The position numbers and the translations under genes are program-made. The notes under the pieces were generated by a model that made no database searches, had not been told where the DNA came from, and saw only the letters and a list, made by a program, of their open reading frames with translations. Of a DNA stretch of 64,000 nucleotides, positions 985 to 20,453 are shown in pieces (position 1 is the first letter of the stretch; each line of letters opens with the position of its first letter). Source of the DNA: Escherichia phage vB_EcoM_EC001; sequence record MN445185.1; one strand, 5' to 3'.

Positions 985-1560
985 ATGAACTTGTATCGCA
1001 TCGGGTTTTACCGGAACGAGGTACCAGAATCGGTTTTGGTTGTCTTAGCCGAAAACGAGGAGCAGGCCAAATCCTTCTGGCCGGTTAGCGCAGAGCGTAC
1101 AGCGGTTGCGTGCTGCTACGACGGTCCAGTTGCCGCAACGGATGTCGCTGCAGGCGTAGTCCTGAAGATGGGCCGATGGGAAGATTACTCCCATCCCGGT
1201 TTGGAGTTTGTTTCCGAACCTGCCAGACATTCCTGGGAATTTCCCTCAGGCAACACCGAGACGTATTTCGGATTTCAGGTTAAACAACCTTCGACGCTCA
1301 AACTGTACCTGGTGTACAGCGACGCCGCTACCGAAGACTACGTCGATTCCGGAATCATCGTCGGGGCAACAACCCCTGCTGCGGCATTCGCACATTGGGA
1401 CGGTGATAAACCCGGAATCGTTTCGGTCTGTGAGCTACCACTTGAAGCCGGTTTGGTTACGAACATCAAGTGTGAGCAAGGCCAGGAGCTGACTTGGATC
1501 CGCCAGGATTACCTGACGGAAACGACATTCGAGTACACACCGAGGAAGGTGACCCAATGA
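985..1560 (+). CDS. hypothetical protein (MNLY N-terminal family)
   Basis: 191-aa ORF; stop overlaps next start (ATGA). N-terminal about 35 aa resembles ORF 2283..2525 (MNLY...V.VV.A..EEQA). Confidence 0.5.
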   Translation: MNLYRIGFYRNEVPESVLVVLAENEEQAKSFWPVSAERTAVACCYDGPVAATDVAAGVVLKMGRWEDYSHPGLEFVSEPARHSWEFPSGNTETYFGFQVKQPSTLKLYLVYSDAATEDYVDSGIIVGATTPAAAFAHWDGDKPGIVSVCELPLEAGLVTNIKCEQGQELTWIRQDYLTETTFEYTPRKVTQ

Positions 1561-2048
1561 CGACGATAGCGTTCGACGGAAAAGTCTTAGCTGCTGACGG
1601 TCAGCTGACCCGCGGGTCGAATATCTGCAACCTGAACACCCAGAAGTTATTCATCTGCCCTTCTGACGAGGAATGGTGGATTACTGGTGAACGGATTGTG
1701 GCGTTCGGAGTAAGCGGTGACATCACAGGACAGTTGGCCCTGCTGGAAACGGTCCGCTTGAGACCCGGCTACAAGGGGTTAACACAAAGCTCGCAGTTAC
1801 CTGCGAAGATGGATTTTACTTTCCTGATGCTTTTGGCCTCAGGAAAAGCGATAGTCGGCGGAAAACGTGAAGACGACGTGACGTTGTGGTGGAGTGAAGC
1901 CACACCACCTCTGGCAACCGGAAGCGGTTACGAGTATGCGTTGGGTGCGATGAAGATGGGCGCGAATGCGGTTCGTGCTGTTGAGATTGCGTCCGAATGC
2001 GATATCTACACCGGTGGTGAGATTAGCACTTACGAACTACGGAGGTGA
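1557..2048 (+). CDS. HslV-like Ntn-hydrolase (proteasome-type threonine peptidase)
   Basis: Internal ATG with AGGAAGG RBS. Product starts M-TTIAFDGKVLAADGQ (Thr right after Met as in HslV TTIV..GDGQ); Lys about 30 residues in; GSGYEYALGA resembles the HslV GSGG..A motif. Confidence 0.6.
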   Translation: MTTIAFDGKVLAADGQLTRGSNICNLNTQKLFICPSDEEWWITGERIVAFGVSGDITGQLALLETVRLRPGYKGLTQSSQLPAKMDFTFLMLLASGKAIVGGKREDDVTLWWSEATPPLATGSGYEYALGAMKMGANAVRAVEIASECDIYTGGEISTYELRR

Positions 2049-2140: not shown

Positions 2141-2216
2141 AGGAAAGTGACGCAATTGGTAGCGTACCGGTCTCCAAAACCGGCTGTTTAGAGTTCGAGT
2201 CTCTACTTTCCTGCCA
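2141..2216 (+). tRNA. tRNA-Trp (anticodon CCA), CCA end encoded
   Basis: Hand-folded 76-nt cloverleaf: acceptor aggaaag/ctttcct 7 bp, D stem acgc/gcgt, anticodon stem ccggt/accgg with loop ctCCAaa, T stem tagag/ctcta, T loop ttcgagt, discriminator g, CCA. Anticodon and T arms closely match E. coli tRNA-Trp. Confidence 0.8.
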
Positions 2217-2282: not shown

Positions 2283-2525
2283 ATGAACTTGTATTTGCTA
2301 GAACGAACTGACGATATCGGGTATGATGAATTTGATTCCATAATCGTGGCGGCTCCTACGGAGCAAGCCGCGTGTGCAATTCCTCCCGACCGTGGTCATT
2401 GGATGGACTGCCGCTGGTTACCGAAAGAGCGCTGGGATGAAGGGCTTACCCTGACCGTTACTCTTATCGGTACTACGCACTATCCTGCTGGGACCGTCGT
2501 TCATGAATCGTTCAATGCTGGCTAA
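2283..2525 (+). CDS. hypothetical small protein (MNLY N-terminal family)
   Basis: 80-aa ORF starting MNLYLLERTDD; N-terminus similar to ORF 985..1560; followed by hairpin gtgggcttcggcccac. Confidence 0.4.
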   Translation: MNLYLLERTDDIGYDEFDSIIVAAPTEQAACAIPPDRGHWMDCRWLPKERWDEGLTLTVTLIGTTHYPAGTVVHESFNAG

Positions 2526-3300
2526 ACAGTGGGCTTCGGCCCACTAACCCTATTCGAGCCGTGATACTTACTCAGATTGTGCGGGTTGATGTCCCGCATG
2601 AGCCGGTAGCAGCTCAGACCTACGGTAGACCAATAAATCCGTAGCAGCCAGGTACACAAAGCACCAGGTCGCTTGTACAGGATGCTGGGTATCTGACCGG
2701 TCATAACCTCATTCGATACGAGACACGTTTATGCATGAAATACTCCAGTACATCAGGATGTTGATTTCCAACATCCGGTTCTGGGTATTCAGTCATGTTT
2801 GGTTTACAGGCGATGGGTTTTCCCGTAAGGGCCCCACTTACAGACTGGCGTCTCCACGACAACCGTCCCTAGGGGACAGGCAAGCACCGGCCCATTAAGC
2901 CGCTACGCTACGCCTGTAAATCCACAATCTGATAACCGAATGGGATTGAGTTCCCAGTGTTAGGGTGACTGTGTGTCACCGTAGGCGCGGTACCTCATAC
3001 GGCCGGTACGCCACGAATGTACGTGATAGCGGGTGGTGCTTGGAGACGCTAAGACCTGACCTTACGGACAGGCTCAGAAGAAGAAGTCCATCACCTGTAT
3101 TCAGAAATGAATTTAGGTTAATTATTGGAAGTGGCGAAATCACTTACGTGATAACTTAGTAGTATGCAACGAACAATACCAGAGTGACTTTACGAGGTTA
3201 CTGTGGTATATGTCGGTGCGCCGGGCAACGTGTTGCCGCAGATAAGCCCGAGGGAGCTGAGTGCACTAACACACGCCGGGATGCACCGGCACCTTACAAC

Positions 3301-3373
3301 GGCTTTGTAGCTCAGGTAGGTAGAGCAGCCTCTTCGAGGAAGGTCGCTGGTTCGAGACCGGTCAAAGCAAGAG
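3301..3373 (+). tRNA. tRNA-like element, possibly a degenerate tRNA or pseudogene (anticodon arm does not fold canonically)
   Basis: Canonical D arm gtagctcaggtaggtagagc and T arm gctgg-ttcgaga-ccggt, acceptor 6 of 7 bp, but only 19 nt between D and T arms so no standard anticodon stem-loop. Confidence 0.35.
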
Positions 3374-3828
3374 CAGCGAAGTTAGAGGAATTAACACCCG
3401 ACTCATAATCGGATATTTCGACGGTTCGAATCCCTGCCACTTGCTCGCCCTATTTGTGTTATCCTTATCCCGAAGGCATTCGAAATAAGACGCGTATCCA
3501 CACACGGGTCAAGGATAACACGAACCACTTCCGCGGTCACCGTGTCCATTGCCGCCTACCTGCATGGGCTGTCCTCCGACACGGTGACTTCGGGCCAAAT
3601 TACAGACCAGGGCCGTTTGGGTTTTTCTTACGCATCCGTCCAGAGCCACCTCGAGCCCTGGTTTGTTCTCCCTTTTCTGTTCCTAGTTAGCCAACTAAAT
3701 CAATTAAGCCTGGTGCGTTGCCCTGGGAACAGAAAAACTTATTCGGTTACACACCGAACCCACCCACGAGGGATATGTCGTGGACTACCAATAGAAGCAG
3801 CAATAGTAGAAGTAAGAAGGAAAGCAAC

Positions 3829-4650
3829 ATGTTTACAGTTAAACGTGTGATTGATGGTGACCGCATTATTACCGAACATGAAAAAGTTCGTATCGGTGAC
3901 CGTAAGTCTCGTGTATTCCGCGAGGCATTAAAAATGCTCGAGAACGAGCGATTCGACATTGTTGTCGATGATGAAAAGTTAGCCCTTAATCCGGGGTTAA
4001 AACGCGTTGCCCCTGATGTGCCTGATCCGAACACCATGCATTTGTCTGACTACTGCAGCTGGTCGCACAGATTATATAAAAGTCAGGTTTATGCACACAC
4101 GTATTTGCGGCAGCTTTTCCCCAACCTTATTATCCCCGATTTGGAAACGGTCGAGGTGTTTAACTGCAACGCACGCGAGTTTATTAGCTACGTGCTAGAT
4201 AATAAGGGCAATGCTATCTTGGTACTGGACACAAGTTCCAGTATACCTGATGCTGTGGCTAGCATACGTGGTGAAATCATCGGTTACGGTACTCCCCCAG
4301 AGAAATTAGGCTGGTACAAACCATCTCCTGATAGCGACATGGCGATCATTGTCTACACTCAGGAAGAACTGCAACAAGTCGAATTAGAGCCTGGCCCATC
4401 TATCGAGTTCACTGATGTCCAGGAGCAGTCGCAGTGGATTAACGGTGAGTCTGTTGTTACTGTTTTAAAAGGCGCTCGCCCTGGCGACCGGTCAGTCGAT
4501 GAACTGATTGGCGCAATGTGCATCGAAGAAGAATCTGGATACGATCCTGATAACCAGATCAGTACCGGTGCGTTGTACGAACTGTTTTATAAAGGCGACG
4601 AAGTCTACGTGGTTAACTCTCACGGTAAGACTACCGACGCCCTTCGCTGA
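3829..4650 (+). CDS. hypothetical protein
   Basis: Internal ATG of track ORF 3718..4650 with AAGGAAAG RBS; 274 aa; followed by terminator. Confidence 0.6.
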   Translation: MFTVKRVIDGDRIITEHEKVRIGDRKSRVFREALKMLENERFDIVVDDEKLALNPGLKRVAPDVPDPNTMHLSDYCSWSHRLYKSQVYAHTYLRQLFPNLIIPDLETVEVFNCNAREFISYVLDNKGNAILVLDTSSSIPDAVASIRGEIIGYGTPPEKLGWYKPSPDSDMAIIVYTQEELQQVELEPGPSIEFTDVQEQSQWINGESVVTVLKGARPGDRSVDELIGAMCIEEESGYDPDNQISTGALYELFYKGDEVYVVNSHGKTTDALR

Positions 4651-20076: not shown

Positions 20077-20453
20077 ATCTCTGACCGTGTGATCAAGATG
20101 GCTAACGGTTCGAAAAGAGCCCCATCGGACGGGAAACCTCTGATGCGTATTCTCCTGAAATGCTGGGAAACCCTAAAGCGTATCTACCAGAAATGGGGAC
20201 GAAAGTCTGAAACAACAGATACGATGGCCTACGCTAAACAATACTGCTAACGGTTGTGATAATGGGTAATCAGCAGCGAAGCCTCGTGAGAGGAACGTTC
20301 AACGACTATCGCTGAAATGCGAGTAGGGGTCCCAGTGGACTTCGAAGTGGGAGAACACCTAAGGCGATAGCTATGGTGAAGATATAGTCTGTGCCTTATC
20401 GAGAGATAAGGAGGGTGTCTTAGCACACCTGCTGTATACGGAAACGGTATACG
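20077..20453 (+). ncRNA. group I self-splicing intron (no internal ORF), boundaries +/- about 10 nt
   Basis: Conserved core elements R (GTTCAACGACTA, 20297..20308) and S (AAGATATAGTC, 20379..20389) with complementary gacta/tagtc. Frame changes between flanking coding segments; beta-prime homology stops at CSLR and resumes at DKQDFDGDQ. Confidence 0.75.

Follow-up and report, generated by a model that had tools for sequence, protein, structure and literature searches.

The 1.3 kb between the gp2-like and gp4-like genes of Escherichia phage vB_EcoM_EC001 are poor in ORFs, which raises the question of what the phage keeps there. A first-pass annotation of the window (the whole stretch of 64,000 nucleotides from sequence record MN445185.1 analyzed here) had proposed that this segment may hold decayed tRNA genes or an unrecognized structured RNA, and had named Rfam scans and a comparison with related genomes as checks. 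The features identified using these and other analyses are listed in Table 1.

The segment is the remainder of a tRNA array

The ORF-poor 1.3-kb stretch is what remains of a tRNA array after deletion of most of its tRNAs. The window belongs to an SPN3US-like (Seoulvirus) jumbo phage with 96 to 98% identity to SPN3US and vB_EcoM_Lh1B, and the host phage clade is that of the SPN3US-like, nucleus-forming jumbo phages. In all relatives, a gp2-like CDS follows tRNA-Trp, and the distance from this upstream CDS to the first tRNA is a constant ~770 to 800 nt; in many phage records, the locus is found 2 to 4 kb from coordinate 1. The hairpin behind the gp2-like CDS is unchanged in all three Seoulvirus lineages aligned. 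At the equivalent spot, relatives from four genera have 6 to 15 intact tRNAs, and those between the same flanking genes are for Tyr, Glu, Asp, Ile, Gln, His, Ser, Met, and Asn. tRNA-Tyr, Glu, Asp, Ile, Gln, and Asn are deleted from the window, SPAsTU has six tRNAs that the window lacks, and the deletions map between ACAATGG direct repeats.

The proposal of decayed tRNA genes was therefore correct in part: array tRNAs were deleted, and the T stem of a tRNA(CAU) is chimeric and mismatched. However, the tRNA-like element at 3301 to 3369 is under selection, and RNA that is conserved, covaries, and is unrelated to tRNA makes up most of the segment. The SPN3US lineage represents a natural experiment in which the tRNAs are gone and the RNA framework is almost unchanged and, thus, the function of the structured RNA is separable from tRNA supply.

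Table 1. Features of the locus in window coordinates
Feature	Position	Strand	Basis and remarks
tRNA-Trp(CCA)	2141..2216	+	ARAGORN; Rfam tRNA model, 63.6 bits; sole intact tRNA at the locus
gp2-like small CDS, 80 aa	2283..2525	+	PHROG 5444; upstream edge of the segment
Perfect hairpin GUGGGC-UUCG-GCCCAC	2529..2544	+	Read off the sequence; directly 3' of the gp2 stop codon
Module 0, multi-helix RNA domain 5' of the small ORF	2577..2704	+	RNAalifold
Conserved motif CUCAUUCGAUACGAG (consensus CUYAYUMGRUR)	2708..2722	+	8 nt upstream of the ORF start
Small conserved ORF, 55 aa, MHEILQYIRMLISNIRFWVFSHVWFTGDGFSRKGPTYRLASPRQPSLGDRQAPAH	2731..2898	+	PHROG 26199
Module A, structured RNA	~2865..3098	+	~235 nt; 48 pairs, 92.4% of cells paired
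A+T-rich linker with conserved TATG at 3163-3166	3099..3175	+	Alignment
Module B1 hairpin, 13-14 bp, AUACCAGAGUGAC...GUUACUGUGGUAU	3176..3209	+	Covariation
Module B2	3209..3293	+	Invariant TATG (3209-3212), 8-9 bp closing stem, invariant ACC (3291-3293)
tRNA-like element 1	3301..3369	+	6-bp acceptor stem plus G-A opposition, canonical D and T arms, 3-nt loop
Damaged tRNA(CAU) (tRNA2)	3371..3449	+	Anticodon arm intact; inner acceptor pairs lost
Modules C1 and C2, long hairpins, array trailer	C1 3456-3521, C2 3535-3589	+	Alignment, fold
Modules C3-C5, hairpins	3603..3783	+	Alignment, fold
gp4-like gene	ATG at 3829		Preceded by an A-rich leader and a Shine-Dalgarno sequence

Most of the segment is a conserved structured RNA

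Most of the segment is a plus-strand structured RNA that is conserved across genera and was previously undescribed. The many stem-loops noted in the first-pass annotation are genuine: the minimum free energy z-scores on the plus strand are -4.1 for 2526 to 3300 and -6.05 for 3448 to 3828, no shuffled sequence folded as well, and the hairpins covary across genera. The minus strand also folds well (z-score, -6.45). Positions 2526 to 3300 are 98.7% identical to SPN3US, compared to 95.8% for the wider region. The comparison with related genomes, in which the covariation tests drew on related sequences from only four or five lineages, established that the modules are conserved and covarying across genera and are present beside intact tRNA arrays in other genera. 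A conserved structured RNA of 520 to 780 nt lies directly upstream of the tRNA array in four of four genera (Seoulvirus, Machinavirus, Erskinevirus, and Wellingtonvirus). Pattern scans of the IMG/VR and JGI metagenomes returned the same clade only, while a protein profile search for wider distribution gave 8 clusters. All of the modules are missing from the Petsuvirus phages OBP and Sureiya, although both share the gp2-like gene and have a tRNA array.

Modules 0, A, B, and C matched no Rfam 15 family, and the GOLLD and ROOL models gave no hit in the window at E≤10 or in four relatives at E≤1. Specifically, no known riboswitch, ribozyme, or group I intron class of Rfam 15 was detected over these modules or in relatives, and the Rfam tRNA model did not match them even at E 10. 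Matches to an L17 leader (22 bits), CRISPR-DR56, and mir-1677 in the window were at chance level. The suggestion of an unrecognized structured RNA therefore holds for the modules, which covary and are absent from Rfam 15, but the segment also contains a conserved ORF and a broken tRNA.

On the plus strand, neither sigma-70 promoters nor intrinsic terminators were found above chance, as expected because the phage uses its own RNA polymerases. AGCCAAC, ACAATGG, and TATATATG were also rejected as motifs for promoters or processing throughout the genome because none of them is enriched in the window.

A small ORF lies between two RNA domains

Module 0 consists of the P1 hairpin (2577-2601), a P2 closing helix (2602-2607 with ~2694-2704), the P3 hairpin (2620-2644), and P4/P5, and it contains the conserved single strand ACACAAAGCAC at 2654 to 2664. 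Based on RNAalifold with eight sequences from four genera, 20 of its 33 pairs are compensatory. Because G-U cells outnumber A-C cells 30:1, Module 0 is assigned to the plus strand.

The ORF downstream of Module 0 partly contradicts the statement that the segment has no convincing protein gene. Its frame is open in 18 of 18 related loci, with 55 to 69 codons, and there are further variants in the protein database. The small ORF matches PHROG 26199 with an E value of 6.3e-5, as does Machina gp9 with 1e-49, and the two proteins match each other in BLASTP (E 6e-9). The statement holds for the other ORFs annotated by close relatives, which are not conserved as frames; neither are a minus-strand ORF at 2522..2704 and a plus-strand ORF at 2965..3159, which were rejected as real genes. 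In AlphaFold, residues 2 to 26 of the small protein form a helix (pLDDT, 84 to 89), and the protein is predicted to consist of one N-terminal helix and a basic, disordered tail. Several relatives carry a Shine-Dalgarno-like AGGUGA at the conserved motif upstream of the ORF, while the ORF in the window is without a Shine-Dalgarno sequence. Diversity at codon positions 1, 2, and 3 (0.47, 0.36, and 0.50) displays weak periodicity, and the C-terminal half is poorly conserved and overlaps RNA helices. Because of the missing Shine-Dalgarno sequence, the weak periodicity, and the poorly conserved C-terminal half, the small ORF may be translated inefficiently, if at all.

The UAA stop codon (2896-2898) is located inside the loop of helix H4 of Module A. 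This module comprises H1 (2865-2877), the nested helices H2-H4 (2878-2915), H5 (2941-2956), H6 (2964-2980), a variable H7 (2984-3012), and a long irregular hairpin, H8/H9 (3029-3098), with the invariant internal loops GGAGRCG and AAGA. The single strand ACAAUCUGA at 2924 to 2932 is conserved, and two GNRA-capped hairpins upstream (2822-2831 and 2842-2853) may be part of the module. Identity across Seoulvirus, Machinavirus, Erskinevirus, and Wellingtonvirus is 70 to 80%. Among 17 sequences, 92.4% of cells are paired and 17 pairs are compensatory, compared to 30 to 43% and 3 to 5, respectively, in slid controls, and 0 of 500 shuffles matched the observed values. Two variants (L062 and L064) have compensatory changes at otherwise invariant H3/H4 pairs. 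The ratio of G-U to A-C cells is 46:24. Hairpin loops contain 2-nt indels, and whole hairpins are swapped between lineages; because of these changes, Module A is best read as noncoding. In Erskinevirus, 8 nt separate the end of Module A from tRNA-Gly, so that 5' processing of the tRNA would set the 3' end of Module A there.

Several alternative assignments for Module A were rejected. Minimal RNase P RNA, a group I intron remnant, T-box, tmRNA, SRP, and 6S RNA had no Rfam match, and on inspection, resemblances to AAGUCC and S elements had the wrong strand order or no pairing partner. H7, with the core CGGUACCUCAUACGGCCGG, resembles the consensus of the L17 ribosomal-protein leader (RF03132), but the score is 22 bits versus 34.9 (E 3.7); moreover, none of 5,426 E. 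coli genomes contained a similar sequence, there is no such leader at rpoA-rplQ in E. coli, and H7 is replaced by unrelated hairpins in other lineages. Read-through or frameshifting from the small ORF into Module A was rejected based on the 2-nt indels and the lack of a conserved downstream frame. The only candidates for helices that would link Modules 0 and A over a long range, or for pseudoknots in Module A, were short and rich in wobble pairs. The complementarity of AAGCAC and GUGCUU is broken in pSal04 and Asesino without compensation, and no inter-module helix or pseudoknot was supported.

Module B and Module C flank the tRNA positions

Module B1 has 14 pairs, 2 of them compensatory, and two invariant G-U pairs in seven sequences from two genera. 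The closing stem of Module B2 (3211-3219 with 3283-3291) covaries, and the octamer TATGTCGG (3209-3216) does not vary among Seoulvirus, Machinavirus, and an uncultured Wellington-like phage. In relatives, the B2 domain stops 5 to 8 nt before tRNA-Tyr. The late promoters of phiKZ have the form T(-3)ATG(+1), with each of the four bases needed in vitro (PMC7598289). The TATG in the linker has this form and could act as a promoter, and the TATG at 3209 to 3212 is likewise a candidate late promoter; we note that TATG is only a 4-mer and that the longer TATATATG is depleted across the window.

On the other side of the tRNA positions, 14 of the 31 pairs in C1/C2 are compensatory (eight sequences), and the C2 loop contains the conserved UGCCGCCUACCUGCAUGGGCUG. 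Among the C3-C5 hairpins, that at 3603 to 3665 is present only in the SPN3US-type and pEa29 Seoulvirus lineages and is absent from SPAsTU. The others map to 3675 to 3734, 3742 to 3758, and 3764 to 3783, the last of which has a conserved GGGAWAWG loop. By eye, the C5 stem covaries (CCACGA/UCGUGG, CCGUGU/ACACGG, and CCGCGA/UCGCGG).

A tRNA-like element without an anticodon loop is under selection

As described in the first-pass annotation, a tRNA-like element with canonical D and T arms and a short anticodon region begins at about 3301. The Rfam tRNA model (RF00005) matches 3301 to 3370 on the plus strand with 33.6 bits, above the gathering score of 29, and the alignment fills one of five central anticodon-loop positions. 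ARAGORN made no call here, even with relaxed thresholds. The element reads GGCUUUG UA GCUC AGGUAGGUA GAGC A GCCUC-UUC-GAGGA AGGUC GCUGG UUCGAGA CCGGU CAAAGC A, and its T arm carries the GTTCGA loop. Element 1 has neither the 7-nt anticodon loop and U33 of a canonical tRNA nor a conserved anticodon. The loop is UUC in the window, UUU in SPN3US, and AUC in Proteus phage 7, and across relatives it has 3, 4, 5, 6, 7, or 8 nt or inserts of ~25 to 60 nt. In contrast to this variability, the acceptor (6 bp) and T (5 bp) stems are 100% paired in 13 divergent phages, in which 8 of these 11 pairs are compensatory, and the ratio of G-U to A-C cells is 12:0. The acceptor/T half is under purifying selection, and the anticodon region is free to vary. 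Because the stems are fully paired and largely compensatory and the anticodon region alone varies, element 1 is not a decaying gene. No CCA is encoded at its 3' end; rather, it runs straight into the AAGAGC of the next element. It is always located 1 to 2 nt upstream of tRNA(CAU) and persists even in phages from which almost all true tRNAs are gone.

The second T-loop noticed at about 3423 was confirmed: GGTTCGAATCC at 3423 to 3433 belongs to the tRNA(CAU) homologue tRNA2. The anticodon arm of this homologue (CCCGA-CUCAUAA-UCGGA, anticodon CAU) is almost invariant across the clade, with 11 of 13 sequences identical. Across the clade, tRNA2 differs from every other tRNA of the same arrays in its 8-bp acceptor stem and in the lack of an encoded CCA. 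Homologues in relatives score 30.6 to 45.6 bits with the Rfam tRNA model, which did not report tRNA2 in the window at E≤10. In the window, three of five T-stem pairs form, and the stem is chimeric, with an SPN3US-type 5' strand (GACGG) and a phage 1252-type 3' strand (CCCTGCC). The form of this stem is polymorphic among close relatives, and no database phage is identical to the window over the tRNA2 stretch. Compared to canonical tRNAs, tRNA2 is a homologue of the tRNA-Met/Ile2(CAU) genes called in relatives, and element 1 scores above the Rfam cutoff and shows the acceptor, D, and T arms; unlike canonical tRNAs, element 1 is without an anticodon loop, and the T stem of tRNA2 is broken in the window.

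DISCUSSION

We think it probable, if far from certain, that the segment is the conserved RNA framework of a tRNA-array locus from which the decoding tRNAs were deleted and that it comprises two transcription units. Promoters, RNA ends, and stability at the locus are all predictions from the sequence. The most likely arrangement would be two transcripts, one of them an RNA that encodes the small protein and has ornate folded ends, and the other an array transcript that is cut at tRNA-shaped marks. Unit 1 would span ~2577 to 3098 (~520 nt) and include Module 0, the small ORF, and Module A, so that a protein with a helix and a basic tail would be encoded between ornate 5' and 3' domains, with the stop codon in an RNA loop. 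Most likely, the folded ends would stabilize the RNA and control translation; alternatively, unit 1 may be a dual-function RNA that possibly forms a ribonucleoprotein (RNP) with its own product. Unit 2 would start at the invariant TATG at 3209 to 3212, where the first base of the transcript would also be the first of the B2 stem, making B2 a protective 5'-terminal domain. It would then pass the tRNA positions and end in the C1/C2 hairpins, and host RNase P and 3'-end processing enzymes would cut it at the tRNA-shaped structures. Element 1 would be a processing mark that sets the 5' end of tRNA(CAU) and frees the flanking structured RNAs. For recognition in processing, the element would need only its acceptor/T minihelix; thus, it would survive without an anticodon.

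A very different reading, in which the segment is neutral debris of decayed tRNAs and junk DNA after collapse of the array, with the hairpins as fossil tRNA arms, is very unlikely. It would account for the six SPAsTU tRNAs missing from the window, the position of the deletions between ACAATGG direct repeats, and the broken, polymorphic T stem of tRNA(CAU). However, the modules are not tRNA derived, with no match to the Rfam tRNA model at E 10, covary strongly, and sit beside intact arrays in other genera; the stretch is better conserved than its surroundings (98.7% versus 95.8%), and the stems of element 1 are fully paired in all 13 phages. Covariation largely refutes the debris reading. That the conservation reflects unrecognized protein genes beyond the small ORF, frameshifted or oddly started, is highly improbable. 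Relatives do annotate such genes (SPN3US_0003 on the minus strand, and 2522..2704 on the minus strand and 2971..3159 on the plus strand in Lh1B), but these frames are lost even among 96%-identical phages, stem substitutions are compensatory, and Module A has 2-nt indels and swapped hairpins. Moreover, the segment gave no Pfam or PHROG match other than that of ORF 2731-2898, in a scan that left out the other short ORFs. We give equally little credence to the idea that the inverted repeats act as DNA, for instance by serving as a replication origin, for packaging, or for protein binding close to where the genome conventionally starts. The location 2 to 4 kb from coordinate 1 in many records and the well-folding minus strand (z-score, -6.45) would fit a function in DNA, but G-U pairs are tolerated while their minus-strand equivalent, A-C, is nearly absent (30:1 and 12:0), the structures always point the same way as the tRNAs, and multi-way junctions and conserved unpaired loops are typical RNA features.

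Two other readings accept the RNA but give it different roles. It is possible, although we doubt it, that a large ornate RNA of a new class, acting in trans, is built from Module 0, the ORF region, Module A, and perhaps Module B, and that the ORF is secondary or the RNA has a dual function. The 520 to 780 nt directly upstream of the tRNA island in every genus, as a constant unit of ~770 to 800 nt, the GNRA-capped hairpins and invariant internal loops, and retention of the RNA after tRNA loss are consistent with this possibility, and GOLLD and ROOL RNAs are often near tRNA islands, with tRNAs sometimes inside GOLLD (bioRxiv 10.1101/2024.12.08.627333). However, no GOLLD or ROOL model matched, the middle of the RNA is crossed by a conserved open frame, helices linking one module to another were not found, Modules A and B have TATG promoter-like motifs between them, and the family is limited to one phage clade. 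Rather unlikely is that element 1, instead of being a processing mark, is a decoy or mimic that titrates a host factor or a tRNA-targeting defense enzyme recognizing the acceptor, T arm, or elbow. Selection does fall on the acceptor/T minihelix and the D arm (type A), i.e., the elbow and not the anticodon, the element is kept where nearly all true tRNAs were lost, and a role in countering host tRNA cleavage has been suggested for the tRNAs of jumbo phages (review PMC13282480). Yet the element is always fused 1 to 2 nt upstream of tRNA(CAU), which fits co-processing, and no CCA is encoded after it. In addition, known anticodon nucleases need the anticodon loop, which counts against a decoy.

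Several known systems resemble parts of the framework with two transcription units. In T4, species 1 and 2 (rnaC/rnaD) are stable non-tRNA RNAs within the phage tRNA cluster that are freed by tRNA-processing enzymes, and T4 tRNAs are made as tandem pairs (dimeric precursors) with almost no spacer. Unlike the T4 stable RNAs, the elements described here are larger, and the phages and sequences are unrelated; unlike in the dimeric precursors, one member of the tandem pair is no decoding tRNA. In mascRNA (MALAT1 3' end, RF01684) and in mitochondrial tRNA punctuation, a non-decoding tRNA fold is cut by RNase P and RNase Z and defines the ends of neighboring RNAs. Those systems are eukaryotic or organellar, and cleavage at the phage element is a prediction; the mascRNA model gave only sub-threshold matches, on true tRNAs of relatives only. 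YrlA (Y RNA-like, RF02553), from Salmonella and relatives, is also a bacterial or phage RNA with a non-decoding tRNA-like domain, but matches to it were weak, sub-threshold, and in relatives only (29 bits versus a cutoff of 69), and the locus contains no Rsr gene.

The closest analogues are GOLLD (RF01998) and ROOL (RF03087), long, elaborate noncoding phage/prophage RNAs without known function (bioRxiv 10.1101/2024.12.08.627333; PMC5737381) that assemble into RNA-only cages. As with these, a phage-encoded structured RNA lies beside a tRNA island, here upstream of the array in all four genera. In contrast, the locus matches neither in sequence nor in structure, is from Gram-negative nucleus-forming jumbo phages, has a smaller core (Module A, ~235 nt; Module 0, ~130 nt), and contains a conserved 55-codon ORF between its domains. 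Tentatively, and with more doubt than confidence, we suggest that nucleus-forming SPN3US-like phages may encode a large, multi-domain ornate RNA of a new class that acts in trans, as an RNA-only assembly or as an RNP with the 55-aa protein it encodes, with the tRNA mimic as a processing handle or decoy. Such an RNA would measure ~520 nt (up to ~780 nt if Module B is included), would be linked to the tRNA island, and would have been kept after tRNA loss.

Phage tRNA islands repeatedly adjoin large structured RNAs, i.e., GOLLD, ROOL, and the T4 stable RNAs, and this locus adds an unrelated example. Element 1 is well suited for testing whether bacteria use tRNA-shaped processing marks or tRNA mimicry, and the phages can be grown and manipulated (SPN3US in Salmonella and Asesino in Erwinia). 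We note that ~60 phage genome annotations are wrong or blank at this locus, with spurious ORFs, omission of the small ORF, and mislabeling of the mimic, which has been annotated as 'tRNA-OTHER', 'tRNA-Asp', 'tRNA-Ile(aat)', and 'tRNA-Pro(cgg)'.

Putative structured RNAs between the gp2-like and gp4-like genes

The segment at 2530-3830, between the gp2-like coding sequence (2283-2525) and the gp4-like gene, is 96-98% identical to the Salmonella phage SPN3US and the Escherichia phage vB_EcoM_Lh1B, both Seoulvirus, which are nucleus-forming jumbo phages, and in parts 70-80% identical to the Machinavirus, Erskinevirus, and Wellingtonvirus jumbo phages of Erwinia and Salmonella. The features described in the first-pass annotation are real, apart from the claim that the segment lacks a protein gene, which overlooked a 55-codon ORF. 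The many stem-loops that it mentioned are matched by folding far above that of dinucleotide shuffles (z of −4.1 for 2526-3300 and −6.05 for 3448-3828). Its tRNA-like element (element 1, 3301-3369) matches the Rfam tRNA model at 3301-3370 with 33.6 bits (cutoff, 29) and has an anticodon loop of three bases, while its second T-loop, GGTTCGAATCC at 3423-3433, is that of an adjacent damaged tRNA(CAU). In ARAGORN, tRNA-Trp (2141-2216) was the sole call in the whole window. Two readings had been offered: an unrecognized structured RNA, which holds for Modules 0, A, B, and C, and tRNA decay, which holds for the tRNAs lost from the locus and fails for element 1.

Features of the segment in window coordinates
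Feature	Position	Strand	Description
Module 0	2577-2704	+	upstream of small ORF; hairpin and three-way junction
Small ORF	2731-2898	+	55 codons, ATG start; PHROG 26199
Module A	~2865-3098	+	48 pairs, 8 helices
Module B	3176-3293	+	14-bp hairpin, then domain with 8-9 bp closing stem and invariant ACC
tRNA(CAU)	3371-3449	+	CUCAUAA (CAU) anticodon arm intact
Module C	3456-3783	+	after last tRNA; two long covarying hairpins and several others
ORFs annotated as hypothetical proteins in close relatives	2522-2704, 2971-3159, 3312-3549	−, +, −	two in Lh1B; SPN3US_0003

On comparative evidence drawn from four or five lineages, the conserved content of the segment is non-tRNA and comprises four covarying blocks common to several genera. 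For Module 0, RNAalifold on eight sequences from all four genera gave 33 pairs, 20 of them compensatory. The Module A alignment contains 17 distinct sequences, for which a structure was written; paired cells amounted to 92.4% versus 30-43% with the partners slid, and compensatory pairs to 17 versus 3-5 in the slid controls, values reached by 0 of 500 shuffles. Two variants recovered later (L062 and L064) alter otherwise invariant pairs of helices H3 and H4 in a compensatory manner (AGC/GCU to UGC/GCA; CCGG/CCGG to UCGG/CCGA). Because the hairpin loops of Module A carry 2-nt indels between sequences and helix H7 is swapped for unrelated hairpins in different lineages, Module A is not coding. 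If the RNA were on the other strand, A-C oppositions would be expected; G-U pairs are common and A-C oppositions nearly absent (30:1 in Module 0, 12:0 in element 1), which fixes the + strand and counts against a role at the DNA level. Tertiary contacts and inter-module helices were looked for, and none were supported. None of the four modules matched any of 4,227 Rfam families (E ≤ 10 for the window, E ≤ 1 for four relatives).

The H7 hairpin of the window (GGCGCGGUACCUCAUACGGCCGGUACGCC, 2984-3012) recurs nearly identically in at least three genera. Its carriers are scattered lineages (the SPN3US type, pSal04, Asesino, L062/L064, and two uncultured phages), and their sister phages have unrelated hairpins at the same site. 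This pattern suggests recombinational exchange of an RNA subdomain.

Coding potential

In each of the 18 loci examined, the small ORF stays open over 55-69 codons; it begins with ATG and ends at an invariant UAA, placed in the 9-nt loop that closes helix H4 of Module A. Its proteins share the pattern R.W.L..YWL[TS]G.G..R...QAPAH and match, besides the PHROG, Machina gp9 (E = 6e-9). Diversity per codon position is 0.47/0.36/0.50, with a modest excess of synonymous changes. In the AlphaFold prediction, residues 2-26 at the N terminus form the single helix (pLDDT 84-89), followed by a basic tail that is disordered; it is the sequence for this tail that overlaps RNA helices, including GNRA-capped hairpins. 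We consider translation probable; counting against it are the lack of a Shine-Dalgarno sequence in this phage and weak conservation. The three ORFs annotated in close relatives are probably annotation artifacts, since their frames are unconserved and they overlap covarying helices or the tRNA-like pair.

Loss of the tRNA array and retention of element 1

In every relative a tRNA array sits between the same two genes, one gp2-like (80 aa, following tRNA-Trp) and the other gp4-like. The SPAsTU array encodes Tyr, Glu, Asp, Ile, Gln, and Asn; Erwinia phage arrays have up to 15 tRNAs, among which lie genes for TerB, TAXI-family solute-receptor, ParB-like, and HNH proteins. HNH-type endonuclease genes and other ORFs within the arrays (L064 5069-5533; L066 3939-4460; L028 1451-1990; L003 2822-3358) are consistent with rapid tRNA gain and loss. 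All tRNAs of these arrays are lost from the window and other SPN3US-type phages. By BLAST against SPAsTU, the losses amount to two deletions, one of ~1 kb at 3294/3295 and one of tRNA-Asn at ~3450. A 258-bp remnant with ACAATGG direct repeats on both sides is kept in Proteus phage 7 and phage 1252 and is missing from the window. Deleted here, between two ACAATGG direct repeats, is an ~85-nt cloverleaf-like element conserved in relatives (L002 ~2700-2785; L004 3457-3543; L005 3538-3621; L003 3822-3905). Its 7-bp terminal stem (GGGAGCG/CGUUCCC) precedes CCA, it contains three hairpins, of which one bears a GGAA cap, and no tRNA finder called it.

In all four genera, element 1 lies 1-2 nt upstream of tRNA(CAU), just ahead of the terminal tRNA-Asn. 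Across 13 phages, every pair of its 6-bp acceptor stem and 5-bp T stem is kept, with compensatory changes at 8 of these 11 pairs. The anticodon region has a loop of 3, 4, 5, 6, 7, or 8 nt or inserts of ~25-60 nt, and because of this variability gene finders give discordant labels ("OTHER," Asp, Pro(cgg), Ile(aat), "???"). As judged by these alignments, the pattern is one of selection on the acceptor/T half alone, not of decay.

In relatives, tRNA(CAU) is a recognizable tRNA (30.6-45.6 bits, Rfam tRNA model). Across the clade its acceptor stem is 8 bp long, frequently with a single bulge, and leads into G-CC (L006 4830-4905; L010 3874-3949; L008 4292-4391; L013 4967-5066; L014 4219-4318), whereas all other array tRNAs encode CCA; in ChrisDB, pEa_SNUABM_9, and pEa_SNUABM_4 it carries a variable arm of ~27 nt. 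The T stem of the window version, found in no other sequenced phage, has a 5' strand like that of SPN3US opposite a 3' strand like that of phage 1252, and three of five pairs form. In the window, tRNA(CAU) is most likely non-functional.

A possible working of the locus

Literature searches found no transcript data for the locus, and we infer its promoters, RNA ends, and function. Late promoters of phiKZ have the sequence T(−3)ATG(+1), all four bases of which are needed in vitro (PMC7598289). The sequence TATGTCGG at 3209-3216, invariant across lineages, contains a TATG, and with its G the stem of the second Module B domain (B2) begins. An array transcript may start at this putative promoter and extend across the tRNA positions, with the Module C hairpins at its 3' end; given the position of the G, it would open with a closed 5' domain. 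In relatives, Module B ends 5-8 nt upstream of tRNA-Tyr. More conserved TATG motifs after Module A in all lineages suggest an independent unit of ~520 nt farther upstream, made up of Module 0, the small ORF, and Module A. In Erskinevirus, tRNA-Gly begins 8 nt after the Module A end, so that tRNA processing would set the Module A 3' end there.

Because element 1 keeps exactly the parts recognized by RNase P and 3'-end enzymes, the best-supported reading is that it would serve as a processing mark for the adjacent tRNA(CAU) and the flanking RNAs; that it acts as a decoy is the main alternative.

Parallels and distribution

One parallel to the modules comes from phage T4, whose tRNA cluster includes stable RNAs. 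The nearest are GOLLD and ROOL, large ornate phage RNAs of unknown function that form RNA cages and are "often near tRNA islands" (bioRxiv 10.1101/2024.12.08.627333). None of the modules matched a GOLLD or ROOL model, which places them outside these families, and they differ in size, host phage, and the embedded ORF. On these grounds, we file them among the structured RNAs that accompany phage tRNA islands and as members of no described family.

The distribution of the RNA family is limited to a single jumbo-phage clade; close relatives were the only matches when viral and metagenome collections were scanned by pattern and a protein profile was searched. In the Petsuvirus phages OBP and Sureiya, the gp2-like gene and a tRNA array are present and all four modules are absent. 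Unannotated gaps of ~1 kb directly after their arrays (L067 7883-8921; L068 7409-8508) are unrelated to the modules in sequence.

The gp4-like protein (3829-4650) aligns to PHROG 17697 positions 75-344, so that homologues in other phages are ~74 aa longer N-terminally; upstream (3718-3828), an in-frame ATG at 3775 lies within the covarying hairpin C5 (3764-3783) and is unconserved. Just 5' of tRNA-Trp, an ORF at 1554-2045 (+) matches the HslV-family peptidase PHROG 1040 (E = 1e-37), with a Pfam Proteasome match below threshold. A group I catalytic intron lies at 20090-20411 (+) (Rfam RF00028, full-length model, 69.4 bits; cutoff, 50).
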